Assembly: GCA_046726415.1 (NCBI GenBank)
Contig: JBKPAK010000112.1
Location: 2,334-66,333, forward strand
Length of the DNA: 64,000 bases
Direction: 5' to 3'
Source of the DNA: Candidatus Methylomirabilota bacterium
GTDB lineage: Bacteria; Methylomirabilota; Methylomirabilia; Rokubacteriales; CSP1-6
This document shows positions 5,731-49,692 of this stretch, one piece after another (the stretch's first letter is position 1; the number at the start of each line of letters is the position of its first letter). The notes under the pieces are model-generated. The model made no database searches. It had not been told where the DNA came from and saw only the letters and a program-made list of their open reading frames with translations. The translations under genes and the position numbers were made by a program.

Positions 5731-7629
<1,899 letters not shown>

Positions 7630-7727
7630 TTGAGGCTCCCTTCGTATGAAATGTGCCGACCTTCAGTCCACGAGTTCACCTGCATCGACTCCAATCCAAC
7701 CCGGCGGCTACATGTGAGCGTACTGTT

Positions 7728-7756
7728 TATATATCAGATTAGTGCATTACTGTCAA
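7728..7756 (-). promoter_or_regulatory. near-consensus sigma-70-type promoter for dnaK operon: -35 TTGACA (rc of 7751-7756), 17-nt spacer, -10 TATATA (rc of 7728-7733)
   Basis: Read on minus strand: aactTTGACAgtaatgcactaatctgaTATATAaacagtac; lies in a ~120-bp AT-rich island (7690-7810) that is exceptional in this ~70% GC window; about 95 nt upstream of dnaK ATG. Confidence 0.5.
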
Positions 7757-7818
7757 AGTTGTCCTAAACAGCTGTAAATAAAGGTGTATTCCCTGGATTC
7801 CAGTGATATCGTACGGAT

Positions 7819-8481
7819 GTGAAGCTGGGGTGCGGTGGGTGTCTCGGTTCTCTCGTGATGCTAGCGGCCCTGGCCGGCATTGTCTTGGGAGCGGTCTGGA
7901 TGGGCTCGCGGGCGATGGCACCACCGACCACGGCGCCGGCGGTGGGTACCGAGCAGGATGCCATCCGGGCACAGCAGACATTGTTCGAGATCGTGCGGCG
8001 GAGCACCGGGCGGCGCCCCATGGCCGAACGGGTGCGTCGCGAGTACATCCTCTCTGAAGCCGAACTGAACTCCTTTCTGGCCCGCCACCTTGGGCGGGTG
8101 GCGGGGCTACCTCTCGACAGTCTCTCCATCGGCTTCGTCGGCGACGGTATGATCGAACTGCGCGGTCGGCTGACCCTGGATCAGGTACTCGGAGACCACG
8201 GGTCCCCCCTGACCGAGCACGTGCCGAAGTCGTGGAAAAGGGCGAGCGTCATCCTCACGCTCCGAGGCCCATTGCGCCTCGAGACCGAGGCGTCCCGCGG
8301 GCAGCCAAAAGCCCTCCGCTTTGATGTCGAGGAGGCCTACCTCGGCCGGCAGCGTGTCCCCGTGGTGGCGGTAGAGAGGTTGTTGGGCGTCCACGGCGGA
8401 CTCAGAAAGTGGTCCGTTCCCGACTCCGTCGACGCCGTGATCGTCGAGAGAGGCCGGGCCGTGGTCAGGACGGCCTCATAG
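7819..8481 (+). CDS. hypothetical membrane-anchored protein (N-terminal TM helix, 220 aa)
   Basis: ORF with GTG start at 7819 (alternative ATG at 7858 giving MLAALAGIVLGAVWM TM start); divergent from dnaK across the AT-rich promoter region; no recognisable catalytic motifs. Confidence 0.5.
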   Translation: MKLGCGGCLGSLVMLAALAGIVLGAVWMGSRAMAPPTTAPAVGTEQDAIRAQQTLFEIVRRSTGRRPMAERVRREYILSEAELNSFLARHLGRVAGLPLDSLSIGFVGDGMIELRGRLTLDQVLGDHGSPLTEHVPKSWKRASVILTLRGPLRLETEASRGQPKALRFDVEEAYLGRQRVPVVAVERLLGVHGGLRKWSVPDSVDAVIVERGRAVVRTAS

Positions 8482-14740: not shown

Positions 14741-14756
14741 TGGCATGCGAGGTGCA
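14741..14756 (+). promoter_or_regulatory. sigma-54-type promoter upstream of pilA: -24 TGGCAT / -12 GTGCA with canonical GG-N10-GC spacing
   Basis: tggcatgcgaggtgca at 14741-14756 (GG 14742-43, GC 14754-55), ~43 nt upstream of pilA ATG 14799; pilA genes are sigma-54/PilR dependent in several lineages. Confidence 0.5.
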
Positions 14757-14798: not shown

Positions 14799-15254
14799 AT
14801 GACCACGTGCTGCCGGCAGCAATTCCGAGGGGGGAACAATCGCGGCTTCACCCTGGTCGAACTGATGATCGTGGTCGCGATCATCGGGATCCTCGCCGCC
14901 GTGGCCATTCCGCTCTACGCGAACCTGCAGGCCCGCGCGCGCATCGCGAAAGCTCAGGCCGACGTTCGCACGGTGGGATCGGCCATCAGTATCTACGCGG
15001 CCCACACCGGGACTCTCCCCACCGCCGCGAACCTCGCCACGGCCCTGACCACGGCCAGCACCGTGGCCGGCGTCACGGCAGGGCCGTTCATCGGCAACCT
15101 CCCAACTCCGCCGAGCGGTGGAGGTTGGCCGGCCGCCTACACCTACGCCCCGGACGTGGCGCCGGGCGGGGCGGCACTGGTGGGTTCCTTCGTGTTCTGC
15201 GCCGCTGGTGACGGCAGCTTCGCCAACAGCGGCGGCGTCAGTAGCTGTCCCTGA
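14799..15254 (+). CDS. pilA: major type IVa pilin PilA (prepilin, 151 aa)
   Basis: Class III signal: leader MTTCCRQQFRGGNNRG then FTLVELMIVVAIIGILAAVAIP with Glu5; C-terminal Cys pair (FCAAG...SSCP) typical of the pilin D-region; start trimmed to ATG 14799. Confidence 0.85.
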   Translation: MTTCCRQQFRGGNNRGFTLVELMIVVAIIGILAAVAIPLYANLQARARIAKAQADVRTVGSAISIYAAHTGTLPTAANLATALTTASTVAGVTAGPFIGNLPTPPSGGGWPAAYTYAPDVAPGGAALVGSFVFCAAGDGSFANSGGVSSCP

Positions 15255-44817: not shown

Positions 44818-47800
44818 ATGACTGCTCGCCAGGCCGGGCGATATCGCGTTGGCATCGACATCGGAGGCACCTTCACCGACTTCGTTCTCTTCGACGAGGA
44901 GCGCGGCCGGCTCACCATCCACAAGTGCCTCACCACCCCCAAGGATCCGGCGGCCGGCGCGCTGGAGGGGCTCGAGGAACTCCTGCGGGCCGCCGCCCTG
45001 CGGTTCGACGACATCGGCCACCTGGTCCACGGCACCACCCTCGTCACGAATGCCATCATCGAGCGGAGCGGGGCTCCGATGGGACTCCTCACCACCCGGG
45101 GCTTCCGGGATACCCTGGAGATGGGCGTCGAGCAGCGCTACGACATCTACGACCTCTTCCTGCGCTTCCCCGAGCCGCTGGCCCCGCGTCAGTGGCGGCG
45201 CGAGATCGACGAGCGCATCAGCCGTGATGGCGACGTCATCGTGCCTCTCGATGTCGGGCAGGTCTTCCACGAGGTCGCCGACCTCGTGGCCCAGGGCGTG
45301 GAAGCCATCGCCGTCTGCTTCCTGCATTCGTACAAGAATCCAGTGCACGAGCGCGCGACACGCGAGGCGATCCGGCGCGACTTCCCGGCCCTCGCCGTGT
45401 CGCTGTCCTCGGAGGTGGTGCCCGAGTTGCGCGAGTACGAGCGCGGGACTACAGCCACGGCCAATGCGTACGTGCAGCCCCTTATGGACCGCTACGTGGC
45501 GCGCCTGGAGGAAGCTCTGGCCGAACGCGGCTTCCGCGGGCGCTTCCACCTGATGCAGTCCTCCGGCGGCATGGCGTCACCGGCCACGGCGCGCGCCTTT
45601 CCCATCCGCCTGCTCGAATCGGGCCCGGCCGGGGGCGGCTTGGCCACCGCATTTTTCGGGCGGCTGGCCGGCTACGCGGATGTCATCTCTTTCGACATGG
45701 GGGGCACCACGGCCAAGGCGTGCCTCATCCAGCAGGGGCGGCCCGACATCGCGCCCATGATGGAGGCGGCACGGGTGCACCGGTTCAAGCGGGGCAGCGG
45801 CCTGCCCATCAAGGCGCCGGTCATCGACATGATCGAGATCGGGGCGGGCGGTGGCAGCACCGCGCGCGTCGATCCGCTGGGGCTGCTGAAGGTCGGACCT
45901 CACAGCGCGGGAGCCGATCCGGGACCCGCCTGCTACGGGCTCGGTGGCAAGGCGCCGACGGTCACCGATGCCAATCTGATGCTCGGGTACCTGGACGCCG
46001 ACTTCTTCTTGGGCGGGCGCATGCGGCTCGACACAAGGGCGGCCGAGGCAGCCATGGCCACGGTGGCGGAACCACTCAACTTGAGCCCGCTCGAGGCCGC
46101 GTGGGGCGTCTACACCATCGTCTGCGAGAATATGGCCGCGGCGGCGCGCGTGCACATCGTGGAGAAGGGACGGGACCCGCGGCGCTACGCCATGGTGGGC
46201 TTCGGCGGGGCTGGCCCGGCCCACGCGGCGCGGGTGGCGCGCATCCTGGGGGTGCGGGAGGTCATCGTTCCGCCGGCCTCGGGCGCCGCCTCCGCGCTGG
46301 GCTTCCTCGTGGCGCCCATCGCCTTCGAGCTGGTGAGGTCGCTGCCCGGGGTCCTCGAGGAGCTGGACCTCGACGCCGCCAATAGTCTTCTGGACGACCT
46401 CGAGGCCCGTGGACGGGCGCTGCTCCGCGAGGCCGGTGTGGCGGCGGAGGACGTGACGGTCACCCGGCGGGCCGAAATGCGGCTGCTCGGGCAGGTGCAC
46501 GACATCACCGTCGCGTTGCCGGCCGAGCCGCTCTCCCCCTCGACGCTCGACGAGGTGAAGGCCGCCTTCGAGGACGAGTATCAGCGTCTCTACACACACG
46601 TCTACACGGGCACCGTCATCCAGGCCATCAGCTGGCGAGTGCGGTGCGCGGGACCAGCCCCGTCGATCAGCGTCGAAGACCGGGGAGCGACAGTGGCGGG
46701 GCGCCCCGCTCTCAAGGGACACCGGCGGGCCTACTTCGGCGATGCTGGTGGCTGGGCCGACACACCGATCTACGACCGCTACGCGCTCTCACCCGGGCAG
46801 GCTCTCGCCGGCCCGGCGATCGTGGAAGAGCGGGAGTCGACCACCCTGGTGCCACCGGGCGATCGCCTGGAGGTCGACGCTCGGGGGAACCTCCGCATCC
46901 ACGTCAGCCAGGACAGTTCGCTCGAGCCCTTGGTCCCTCGCGGCCTGCCACTGGCCGAGGCGGTGGTGCGCCTCACGGCCGATCCCATCGGCCTGGAGAT
47001 CATGTGGAGCCGGCTCATCAACCTCGTGGAAGAATGCTGGCTCACCGTATGGCGAACGGCGTTCTCGCTGATCATCGGGGAGGCCCAGGATTTTGCGTGC
47101 GAGATCCTGGACGCGTCTGGCAACTCGCTGGCCCACTCGCCGCGCGCCATGCCCGTCTTCAATCTCACGCTGCCCCGCGCGGTGCGCGCGATGCTCGAGA
47201 GGTTCCCGGTGGAAACCCTGCGGCCCGGCGACATCCTCACCACCAACGATCCGTGGATGTGCGCGGGGCATCTGTTCGACATCGCCATCGTGACCCCGGT
47301 GTTCCGCGAGGGGCGCGTGGTGGCCCTGATCGGGACTATCGGCCATGTGGCCGACATCGGGGGAACCCGGGACAGCCTGAACGCACGGGAGATCTACGAG
47401 GAAGGCTTCCAGATCCCGCCCATGAAGCTGTTCCGGGCCGGGGTGCCCAACGAGGATCTGATGGCGCTCCTGGCCGAGAACGTCCGCAAAAGCGAGCAGG
47501 TGCTGGGCGACATCCACGCCATGATCTCCGCCAACGCCTCCGGGGCCCAGCGCCTCCTCGACTTCATGGAGGAGTACGGGCTGCACGATCTCGAAGCGCT
47601 CGCCACCGTCATCCAGGACCGGTCAGAGGCTGCCATGCGGGAGGCCATCCGCCGGCTGCCCGACGGCGCCTACGAAAGTGAGATCTGGAACGATGGCATG
47701 GGAACGCCCGAGCGGTATCGCGTGAGGGTCGTCGTGCGCGGCGACGAGATCGACGTCGACTTCCCCGAGGCGCCGCCGCAGACCGCGCGCGGTGGCTCGA

Positions 47801-48699
47801 ACTGCACGTTCGGCTACGCCGCGGCGCACACCGTGTACCCGCTGAAGTGCATGCTGTCGCCGGCCGTGCCCAGCAACGCCGGCTCGTATCGCCCGCTTCG
47901 GGTGAGTGCCCCCGAGGGCAGCATCCTCAACTGCACCAAGCCGGCCGCCGTCAACACGCGCGTCCGCACCGGCTGGTACATCGCGCCGAATCTGTTCCGG
48001 GCCCTCAGCCCGGCCGCCCCCGAGGCAGTACAGGCGTTCACTGGCCTGCCGGCGTCGGTCACGTTCTACGGAGTGGGGCCTGACGGGCGATTCTTCAACG
48101 ACCATCTCTTCCAAGGTGGAGGGCAGGGTGCGTCTGCACAGGGTGACGGGAAGTCCGGGCTGCTCTGGCCGACCAGTGCCGGGAACACCTCGATCGAGTT
48201 GTTCGAGACGCGAACTCCGGTCCTCGTGCTCGAGAAGAACTTTTTGATCGATAGCGGCGGACCGGGTCGTCACCGCGGGGGGCTCGGCCAGGTGGTCCGA
48301 GTGCGCAAGCTCCTCGACGATGGCCGCCCCGTGCTAGCCGGCCTTCATCCCGACGGTGTCCTCACTCGCACCGGGGGGCTGTTCGGCGGCCAGGCGGGAG
48401 GTCCGGTGCGCGGCGTCACCCGCCACGCCGCAGGGGACGTCGAGGATCACGGCATCGGCGGGCTCCTGAGCCTGGCCGGCCGCGACGAGATCCTCGAGGT
48501 GCAACTCGGGGGCGGGGCGGGCTACGGCAATCCGTTCGAACGGCCCCTCGACGTGGTGCAGCGGGACCTGGACGGCGGCTATATCAGCCGGGCCGGCGCC
48601 GAGCGCGACTACGGCTGCCTCGTCGATGCGCACGGACGTATCGACAGGGAAGCGACGGCAGCCCCGCGCACCAGGAAGGCGCTCGGCACCCGCGACTGA
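44818..48699 (+). CDS. second fused hydantoinase/oxoprolinase HyuA-HyuB paralog (1293 aa)
   Basis: MTARQAGRYRVGIDIGGTFTDFVLFDE... HyuA; HyuB half from DPIGLEIMWSRLINLVEE...; 20 nt downstream of the Pot-like permease, same strand. Confidence 0.9.
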   Translation: MTARQAGRYRVGIDIGGTFTDFVLFDEERGRLTIHKCLTTPKDPAAGALEGLEELLRAAALRFDDIGHLVHGTTLVTNAIIERSGAPMGLLTTRGFRDTLEMGVEQRYDIYDLFLRFPEPLAPRQWRREIDERISRDGDVIVPLDVGQVFHEVADLVAQGVEAIAVCFLHSYKNPVHERATREAIRRDFPALAVSLSSEVVPELREYERGTTATANAYVQPLMDRYVARLEEALAERGFRGRFHLMQSSGGMASPATARAFPIRLLESGPAGGGLATAFFGRLAGYADVISFDMGGTTAKACLIQQGRPDIAPMMEAARVHRFKRGSGLPIKAPVIDMIEIGAGGGSTARVDPLGLLKVGPHSAGADPGPACYGLGGKAPTVTDANLMLGYLDADFFLGGRMRLDTRAAEAAMATVAEPLNLSPLEAAWGVYTIVCENMAAAARVHIVEKGRDPRRYAMVGFGGAGPAHAARVARILGVREVIVPPASGAASALGFLVAPIAFELVRSLPGVLEELDLDAANSLLDDLEARGRALLREAGVAAEDVTVTRRAEMRLLGQVHDITVALPAEPLSPSTLDEVKAAFEDEYQRLYTHVYTGTVIQAISWRVRCAGPAPSISVEDRGATVAGRPALKGHRRAYFGDAGGWADTPIYDRYALSPGQALAGPAIVEERESTTLVPPGDRLEVDARGNLRIHVSQDSSLEPLVPRGLPLAEAVVRLTADPIGLEIMWSRLINLVEECWLTVWRTAFSLIIGEAQDFACEILDASGNSLAHSPRAMPVFNLTLPRAVRAMLERFPVETLRPGDILTTNDPWMCAGHLFDIAIVTPVFREGRVVALIGTIGHVADIGGTRDSLNAREIYEEGFQIPPMKLFRAGVPNEDLMALLAENVRKSEQVLGDIHAMISANASGAQRLLDFMEEYGLHDLEALATVIQDRSEAAMREAIRRLPDGAYESEIWNDGMGTPERYRVRVVVRGDEIDVDFPEAPPQTARGGSNCTFGYAAAHTVYPLKCMLSPAVPSNAGSYRPLRVSAPEGSILNCTKPAAVNTRVRTGWYIAPNLFRALSPAAPEAVQAFTGLPASVTFYGVGPDGRFFNDHLFQGGGQGASAQGDGKSGLLWPTSAGNTSIELFETRTPVLVLEKNFLIDSGGPGRHRGGLGQVVRVRKLLDDGRPVLAGLHPDGVLTRTGGLFGGQAGGPVRGVTRHAAGDVEDHGIGGLLSLAGRDEILEVQLGGGAGYGNPFERPLDVVQRDLDGGYISRAGAERDYGCLVDAHGRIDREATAAPRTRKALGTRD

Positions 48700-48730
48700 G
48701 AGTCCGCCCTCGAGGATCGAGCGCCTCCTC

Positions 48731-49243
48731 TCACCCGCCGTACTCCTTGAGACGCCGGCAGATCGTGCGGCGTGAGATTCCCAGCGCCTGGGCGGCGGCG
48801 TCCTTGTCGTCGTTGAATACCGTGAGCGCCTTCATGATCAGCTCTCGCTCGACCTTCTCCAGCTTGGGCACGGACGCCATGTCGGTGACGGCGACGATCG
48901 GCCTCCGGCCAAGCGCCGGAAGGTCGCTCACGGTGATATGGTCCTGCGCGCCCATGGCAAACGCCCTCTCGATGATGTTCTCGAGCTCCCGCACATTGCC
49001 CGGGAAGTCGTGTGCCATGAGCGCGGTCAAGGCCTCCGGCCCGATGCCGCGAGCGTTGCGCCGGAGCTTGGCGTTGAGGCGTCTGACGTCGATGAGCGCC
49101 GCATCGAACAGCTCGGTGCGGAGCGCCTCGGCCGCCTCGCTTCCGGTACATGGACAGCGGACCTCGTAACCCCACTTCACGAGGGCGTCGCGCAGGAGAT
49201 GGAGTAGTGCTGGCTCGTCATCGACGACCAGAATATTGGCCAT
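48731..49243 (-). CDS. internally deleted NtrC-family (sigma-54 activator) response-regulator remnant: partial receiver + last helix of AAA+ domain + Fis-type HTH (170 aa)
   Basis: MANILVVDDEPALLHLLRDALVKWGYEV...FDAALIDV (receiver up to the phospho-acceptor Asp, about residue 52) joins directly to ...ALMAHDFPGNVRELENIIERA (C-terminal motif of sigma-54 AAA+ domains) and the HTH_8 segment LEKVERELIMKALTVFNDDKDAAAQALGISRRTICRRLKEYG; Walker A/B and GAFTGA are absent. Confidence 0.6.
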   Translation of the reverse strand: MANILVVDDEPALLHLLRDALVKWGYEVRCPCTGSEAAEALRTELFDAALIDVRRLNAKLRRNARGIGPEALTALMAHDFPGNVRELENIIERAFAMGAQDHITVSDLPALGRRPIVAVTDMASVPKLEKVERELIMKALTVFNDDKDAAAQALGISRRTICRRLKEYGG

Positions 49244-49362
49244 GAGCTCCCCTTGAATTGCGGCCGGTGCCAGAGTGGCAGGTCTGGCCGGGCGCCAGGT
49301 TGCTCTTTGGGGGTCGGCATGTTAGCGTCAAAACTTGATCCTTCACGGAGGGAGTCGCCCCA

Positions 49363-49692
49363 ATGGCTGATGTGTCCGCCATCCATCTGACCGAGCAAAC
49401 GTTTGACGAAACCCTGTCAATCCACGAGGGAACTTTGCTGGTGGACTTCTGGGCGGAATGGTGCGGCCCATGTCGGGCGATTGCGCCAATCCTCGACGCT
49501 CTGGTCAAGGAGTCAGGCGGAGGGGTGGGGCTTGCCAAGGTCAATGTGGATGAAAACCCCGGATTGGCCGCCCGGTACGGGATTCGCTCAATCCCGACCA
49601 TCCTGTTCGTGAAGCAGGGGAAGGTCGTCGATCAGGTGATCGGCGCGGTTCCCAAGACGAGAATCAAAGAGAAGCTGGACGCGCTGGCCTAG
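49363..49692 (+). CDS. trxA: thioredoxin
   Basis: WCGPC active site, 109 aa. Confidence 0.93.
   Translation: MADVSAIHLTEQTFDETLSIHEGTLLVDFWAEWCGPCRAIAPILDALVKESGGGVGLAKVNVDENPGLAARYGIRSIPTILFVKQGKVVDQVIGAVPKTRIKEKLDALA

Follow-up and report, generated by a model that had tools for sequence, protein, structure and literature searches.

At the locus described here, an intact open reading frame on the minus strand lies between the thiL and trx genes on one side and a hydantoinase gene on the other; the coordinates of its parts, within the 64-kb stretch of DNA that was analysed (hereafter the window), are collected in Table 1. The JGI name for its product is 'DNA-binding NtrC family response regulator', and Pfam finds three families on it, of which only the last is complete: Response_reg on residues 4-54, covering just positions 1-51 of the 111 in the profile; AAA_lid_14 on residues 54-110 (profile 16-72 of 87); and HTH_8 on residues 128-168 (profile 2-42 of 42, E=9e-12). 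PDB and NCBIfam searches divide the protein in the same place, residues 1-54 matching the starts of receiver domains and residues 53-169 the extreme C-terminal third of ZraR, AtoC, NtrC4 and NtrX, with ZraR (1ojl), NtrC4 (4l4u) and the AtoC/ZraR NCBIfam models as the best matches. As the initial annotation had noticed, the receiver stops right after its phospho-acceptor (Asp52, which aligns with that of receiver domains), and the chain runs directly into the end of a sigma-54 AAA+ domain and then into a Fis-type helix-turn-helix (HTH). Of the AAA+ lid, the last three quarters are kept. The alpha3-beta5-alpha5 part of the receiver is missing, and with it the conserved Thr/Ser of beta4 and Lys of beta5 on which a complete (beta-alpha)5 receiver relies for phosphorylation-dependent switching, while the 170 residues yield no Pfam match to Sigma54_activat and contain no GAFTGA motif. 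Among the features that define the NtrC family, the protein has the HTH_8 domain and the descent, and it has neither the AAA+ core nor Walker A and B.

Table 1. Position and assignment of the features discussed (numbering of the window)
Feature	Position	Strand	Assignment or basis
Intact open reading frame, 170 codons	48731..49243	-	Remnant of a 446-aa NtrC-family response regulator: N-terminal half of receiver, partial AAA+ lid, Fis-type HTH
Codons 1-54, receiver beta1-alpha1-beta2-alpha2-beta3, ending just past phospho-acceptor Asp52	49082..49243	-	Pfam Response_reg
Deletion junction, codon 54 AGA / codon 55 CGC	49079..49084	-	Codon alignment
Codons 55-110, partial AAA+ lid with the GNVRELEN sensor II motif inside	48914..49081	-	Pfam AAA_lid_14 and alignment to ZraR 190-302
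Codons 128-168, complete Fis-type helix-turn-helix HTH_8	48740..48862	-	Pfam, AF2
Shine-Dalgarno-like AAGGGGAG, retained, 3 nt 5' of the ATG	49247..49254	-	Sequence inspection
Convergent hydantoinase gene, 1293-aa A/B fusion	44818..48699		
pilA, type IV pilin, leader ...NNRG/FTLVELM	about 14799..15254	+	
Plausible -24/-12 element TGGCATGCGAGGTGCA, ~43 nt upstream of pilA	14741..14756		2 mismatches to TGGCAC-N5-TTGCA

The DNA comes from a member of Candidatus Rokubacteria / Methylomirabilota. The open reading frame is the positional orthologue of a 446-residue NtrC-family regulator, the gene order thiL-trx, response regulator, hydantoinase being common to the related loci L001, L004, L084 and L085. 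A genome scan with P0135 (446 aa, the closest full-length relative) returned full-length matches 67-98% identical to it, and all 31 of the orthologues aligned from other Candidatus Rokubacteria loci are full length. P0135 has the layout of the NtrC-family enhancer-binding proteins (receiver, sigma-54 AAA+, Fis HTH, as in AtoC, ZraR and NtrC1/NtrC4), from one of which the remnant descends: a receiver (4-112), a Sigma54_activat core (142-308), a lid (314-385) and an HTH (403-443), with Walker A at 170-177, GAFTGA at 217-222, Walker B at 238-243, sensor I at 280-285 and the R-finger region at 296-303. Because its matches to the AtoC, NtrC and ZraR models all fall below the equivalog cut-offs, we regard it as a generic NtrC-family activator. 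The full-length relatives nearest to the window gene are those of L004 and L085, to which the flanking proteins are 87% (trx), 79% (thiL) and 86% (hydantoinase) identical, the retained regulator columns 79-80%, and residues 1-53 alone 77-79%.

Codon alignment to the full-length orthologue (P0135/L001), the check that had been proposed for defining the breakpoints, places the junction after R54 and before R330, so that codons 55-329 (275 codons, 825 bp) are missing; the earlier estimate of about 270 lost residues, Walker A/B and GAFTGA included, in an otherwise intact frame is borne out. The deleted segment holds the second half of the receiver, with beta4 and beta5, the linker, the whole AAA+ alpha/beta core with its sensor I and R-finger region, and the first helix of the lid (its first 15-16 positions). 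Compared with the NtrC family, the remnant is thus without the Sigma54_activat core, the linker and half of the receiver; lacking that core, it can have no ATP hydrolysis, no core oligomerisation and no contact with sigma-54. Both breakpoints lie off the domain boundaries, one inside the receiver (after beta3) and the other inside the lid (after the first helix). The window sequence tracks the orthologue through D52-V53-R54 and resumes at R330 (ATC CGG / CGC TTC AAC): on the left arm its codon 54 is AGA where L085 reads GTC AGG/ATG, the rare AGR arginine codon being common to both, and on the right arm its codon 55 is CGC where L085 reads ATC CGG/CGC. We sought strong direct repeats at the junction as a deletion mechanism and rejected them, the ends sharing just 2-5 nt of imperfect microhomology (TC-GG), and the deletion looks like an illegitimate-recombination or slippage event with minimal microhomology. 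The missing segment was not found elsewhere in the 64-kb window by tblastn. Random deletions stay in frame one time in three, and the open frame is therefore no evidence of function; gene callers still report a tidy 170-aa regulator because the reading frame continues across the deletion and the start codon, ribosome-binding site and stop all survive.

The initial annotation had also raised the concern that the region might contain a full-length gene restorable by correcting a frameshift, in other words an assembly error. Metagenome-assembled genomes do contain collapse and chimera errors, and the related long-read loci L002 and L003 have genes broken up all along the locus, so that one might suppose a collapsed or chimeric contig from a genome that truly carries the full-length gene. 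An identical junction with the same neighbours is present, however, in the 23 contigs that we fetched (~20 JGI metagenomes and a single Logan-assembled SRA run); because these were assembled independently of one another, and of the NCBI contig, the deletion is not an assembly error, and no frameshift correction would bring back a full-length gene. Nor does the junction offer a repeat that could collapse, its microhomology being as short and imperfect as described, and a search of 5.8 billion proteins returned no full-length allele more than 80% identical. We therefore give an assembly or binning artefact next to no chance. The exact remnant protein is present in the public collection (P0121) in a 17-member cluster at 90% identity, with about 30 contigs, and the deletion form is confined to this single cluster. 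A scan of metagenome contigs with the 170-aa protein gave full-length relatives only and no contig with the deletion, and the population loci were gathered protein by protein.

Two shorter proteins, P0002 (298 aa) and P0137 (197 aa), were considered as further truncated forms and rejected, the neighbour genes on L002 and L003 being fragmented too. On these two loci (ENA ERZ25039541 / ERZ25039555), ribosomal protein, thiL, CorC-family and hydantoinase genes are split or fused by apparent frameshifts; this breakage suggests uncorrected sequencing error, which would explain the truncated look of both proteins.

The other Rokubacteria hint at the role of the intact regulator there, which would be to drive an adjacent sigma-54 promoter. 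In 24 of 24 Rokubacteria species loci, a sigma-54-type promoter (TGGCAY-N5-NYGCA) lies downstream of the full-length regulator on the same strand, about 20-40 nt before a conserved 312-aa gene that we call gene X (loci L086-L115 and L153, e.g., L100:7341-8421, of which gene X takes up 7483-8421, or in L101 ~120-205 bp past the regulator stop). Half of these loci (12 of 24) also carry a palindrome, GTGCCG-N3-CGGCAC with at most 2 mismatches, at a fixed distance of 65-69 bp upstream of the promoter; it is likely to be the regulator's enhancer. Gene X belongs to no Pfam family, with faint similarity to FIST_N and FIST_C (E=0.04 and 0.16), and is followed by TPR, GT2 glycosyltransferase and methyltransferase genes. 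Regulator, candidate enhancer, promoter and gene X likely form a regulatory module in these other Rokubacteria. Gene X, its promoter and the palindrome are all absent from the 64-kb window and from the 13-kb L084 and L085 loci, where the downstream slot is taken by the convergent hydantoinase gene. The regulator had probably already lost its adjacent target in the clade of the window, L084 and L085, which would have eased its later loss; a target elsewhere in the genome is possible, since L084 and L085 keep the regulator intact.

The relevance of the locus had been seen in a sigma-54 promoter at pilA in the same window. That gene does have a plausible -24/-12 element (Table 1), but nothing links it to the remnant: candidate enhancer palindromes number 8 in the window where 12 are expected by chance, none of them has at most one mismatch, and none is near pilA. 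A search of the window for the sigma-54 consensus came out at chance level (4 found, 3.1 expected), and one of the four matches, inside the remnant itself, is coincidental. The 64-kb window contains no other NtrC-type gene, whether PilR-like or for another enhancer-binding protein.

Between species, the retained codons have a dN/dS of 0.156 (window versus L004, dS ~0.8), compared with 0.07-0.15 for the neighbour genes; when two full-length orthologues are compared over these columns, the value is 0.21. Of the 61 columns that are invariant in the 31 full-length orthologues, just one is broken in the population's major allele (F331L, adjoining the junction), to which the window allele adds a second, Y162C. 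Relative-rate tests gave 13 versus 5 changes against the closest full-length orthologue, L085 (p=0.10), and 10 versus 13 with another outgroup, so that any acceleration of the remnant is at most weak. We take the deletion to be recent because the retained codons have been under purifying selection over almost the whole period since the divergence from L004 and L085.

To describe constraint within the population, we compared the remnant with trx, thiL and the hydantoinase gene taken together, in loci L164-L186, whose flanking genes are >99% identical. The remnant carries 7 synonymous and 7 nonsynonymous SNPs, against 31 and 15 in the neighbours, as well as 3 indel alleles in 513 bp against none in 5,280 bp (p=7e-4). 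Its nonsynonymous density is 4.8 times theirs (7/383 sites versus 15/3,879; odds ratio 4.8, Fisher p=0.002), and, with all SNPs counted, its density (14 in 510 bp) is the same as theirs at synonymous sites (2.2%); constraint like that on the neighbours is rejected (Poisson p=2e-4), whereas neutrality is not. We relied on site densities and indels because the SNP counts are too small for relative-rate and MK-style tests (an MK-style N:S contingency, remnant versus neighbours, gives p=0.34). Many of the metagenomes are apparently sibling samples, with consecutive sample accessions, so that alleles counted across them are not independent of one another. What speaks most against full neutrality, in our view, is the remnant's pN/pS of 0.33, which, on 14 SNPs only, is nominally below the 3:1 neutral expectation (p=0.04) but no longer significantly so once transition bias is allowed for (p=0.14).

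Of the three indel alleles, one lacks 3 bp in beta1 (8 loci). Another has lost one base of a GG dinucleotide in the region of codon 114 (GGAGGCC to GGAGCC), which leaves a 134-aa product without the HTH (3 fetched loci, 5 contigs by cluster listing). The third has a 1-bp insertion, AA to AAA (CTCAAGG to CTCAAAGG), close to the stop codon, which is then read through (2 loci). Both frameshifts lie outside homopolymers and, in the loci that we fetched, each was found in 2-3 independent samples; by cluster listing, they are carried by about 7 of 30 contigs. Also segregating are D8G in the acidic pocket of the receiver, Y162C in the recognition helix, and replacements of a conserved C-terminal hydrophobic pair by W or G. 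Segregating alleles that remove or alter exactly the HTH suggest that this domain is not being maintained.

Two further observations concern the variation itself. Synonymous polymorphism is higher in the remnant than in its neighbours (7/127 sites versus 31/1,391, p=0.03), and the same 1-bp frameshift occurs on several backgrounds (P31 or A31, D8 or G8, V53 or I53), which hints at recombination between strains or at mixing of consensus sequences in the metagenome assemblies.

The AF2 model of the remnant, no more than suggestive because its alignment is shallow over the N-terminal part, has a mean pLDDT of 71 and a pTM of 0.42. Residues 1-40 score only 52-67, a single long helix (34-60) spans beta3 and the junction where the native fold has a strand, residues 113-125 form a disordered linker, and the HTH is the sole confident part (pLDDT 87-88). 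Judging from the missing domains and this model, DNA binding by the C-terminal domain is the sole plausible activity. The product might be expressed and have a residual or new role as a small Fis-type DNA-binding protein, either as a passive repressor or anti-activator on the ancestral enhancer or by poisoning the oligomers of paralogues through its lid fragment. The frame, start codon and Shine-Dalgarno sequence, intact in most alleles, and the complete and confidently modelled HTH count towards such a role and against a pseudogene. The near-complete agreement of the major allele with the invariant columns and a pN/pS that is not 1 point the same way, but the low between-species dN/dS is equally explained by a recent deletion, and several observations within the population speak against such a role: frameshifts that remove the HTH or alter the C-terminus, a window allele with a replacement at an invariant position of the recognition helix, and the several-fold excess in nonsynonymous density. 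With both flanking domains cut mid-fold, residues 1-110 probably do not make up a stable module. With no activator gene in the window to antagonise, and with the candidate palindromes at or below their chance number, we consider this role unlikely.

Precedents for a small protein of this kind exist, and the remnant differs from each of them. According to PMC7166090, where it cites Morett & Bork (1998), the small nucleoid protein Fis is thought to derive from the C-terminal domain of NtrC. In Fis, an NtrC-derived HTH_8 works as a stand-alone DNA binder, and HTH_8 is intact in the remnant too; Fis is nevertheless old, widely conserved and strongly constrained, with an N-terminal dimerisation and beta-hairpin region of its own, whereas the remnant is found in one population and has frameshift alleles. 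The ActR/RegA/PrrA-type regulators, which combine a complete receiver with a Fis-type HTH in ~180 aa and have no ATPase, resemble it in size and in the families of their first and last domains (PDB 3rqi, 184 aa, aligns to remnant residues 3-166 with E=0.002). Their (beta-alpha)5 receiver, however, is complete and phosphorylatable, whereas that of the remnant ends after beta3 and is followed by a fragment of lid, and the remnant is not a member of their lineage, having arisen by deletion in one population. A literature search for natural enhancer-binding proteins without an AAA+ domain found nothing directly relevant. If the remnant were expressed and bound DNA, it would show, in a rare live case, how an enhancer-binding protein can give rise to a small DNA-binding protein. 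More specifically, it could be a newborn small regulator that is translated, binds DNA through its HTH without activating, and perhaps dimerises via the residual lid helices; we think this quite improbable. Its birth in a soil Rokubacteria population of today would repeat an event of the type that has been proposed for Fis and NtrC, and on this view the frameshift alleles would be not neutral but deleterious, or else alternative forms.

It is also conceivable that the protein is dead and that the DNA is kept for signals of the neighbouring genes (such as the divergent thioredoxin promoter or, for the convergent hydantoinase, spacing or termination), with an open frame that is incidental. The first 120 bp upstream are indeed common to the divergent trx and partly conserved with L001, and 31 bp separate the end of the remnant from the stop of the hydantoinase gene, but polymorphism runs along the entire remnant at about neutral density. 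A sigma-70 promoter and terminator scan of 48500-49500, of a type that is uninformative for this phylum, detected no promoter-like or terminator-like sites. This explanation, which differs from a pseudogene only in why the DNA persists, seems to us very improbable.

We conclude that the open reading frame is probably a young, decaying pseudogene, derived from a sigma-54-dependent response regulator that is conserved in Candidatus Rokubacteria. Sigma-54 activation requires the ATPase core and the GAFTGA loop, and a receiver that ends after beta3 has no five-stranded sheet and no phosphorylation switch. We infer that the remnant has lost its function: the (beta-alpha)5 fold is out of reach for half a receiver, and a protein lacking the core and the loop could not remodel the sigma-54 holoenzyme. 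In the proposed course of events, a single 825-bp deletion, in frame by chance, would have taken out codons 55-329 and become fixed in one species-level population, in which the remnant would now be drifting, with amino-acid changes, the 3-bp deletion and the two frameshifts segregating. The loss of the regulator may have been tolerated because its presumptive target, the downstream sigma-54 promoter with gene X, is not adjacent in this clade. Of the two possibilities offered in the initial annotation, a pseudogene remnant or a dominant-negative analogue, the first is thus favoured by the relaxed constraint and the indels, and the second finds no support, with no activator in the window and frameshifts that cost the HTH.

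As an object, the remnant is of an ordinary kind, a gene remnant. Conserved domains have been lost relative to intact orthologues and constraint is relaxed, and it shares with ordinary internal-deletion pseudogenes its off-boundary breakpoints and its disabling indels; it differs from them in having an in-frame deletion without a premature stop and in being annotated as a normal gene. It is in this last respect a pitfall for annotation, a clean frame with three Pfam matches that is named as an NtrC family response regulator despite being without the defining parts, and remnants of this kind would lead to an overcount of sigma-54 activators in Rokubacteria genomes. On a small scale and with good dating, the locus also documents how a regulator is lost in an uncultured soil phylum, with the decay visible as segregating frameshifts.

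Three other NtrC-type regulators have apparent, independent internal deletions; they are on short contigs or without a contig record, and could be real genes, pseudogenes or assembly chimeras. P0083 (274 aa) has a complete receiver, a complete lid and the HTH without the ATPase core, P0084 (236 aa) a complete receiver, a partial lid and the HTH, and P0068 (282 aa) jumps from Walker A directly to the sensor I region.
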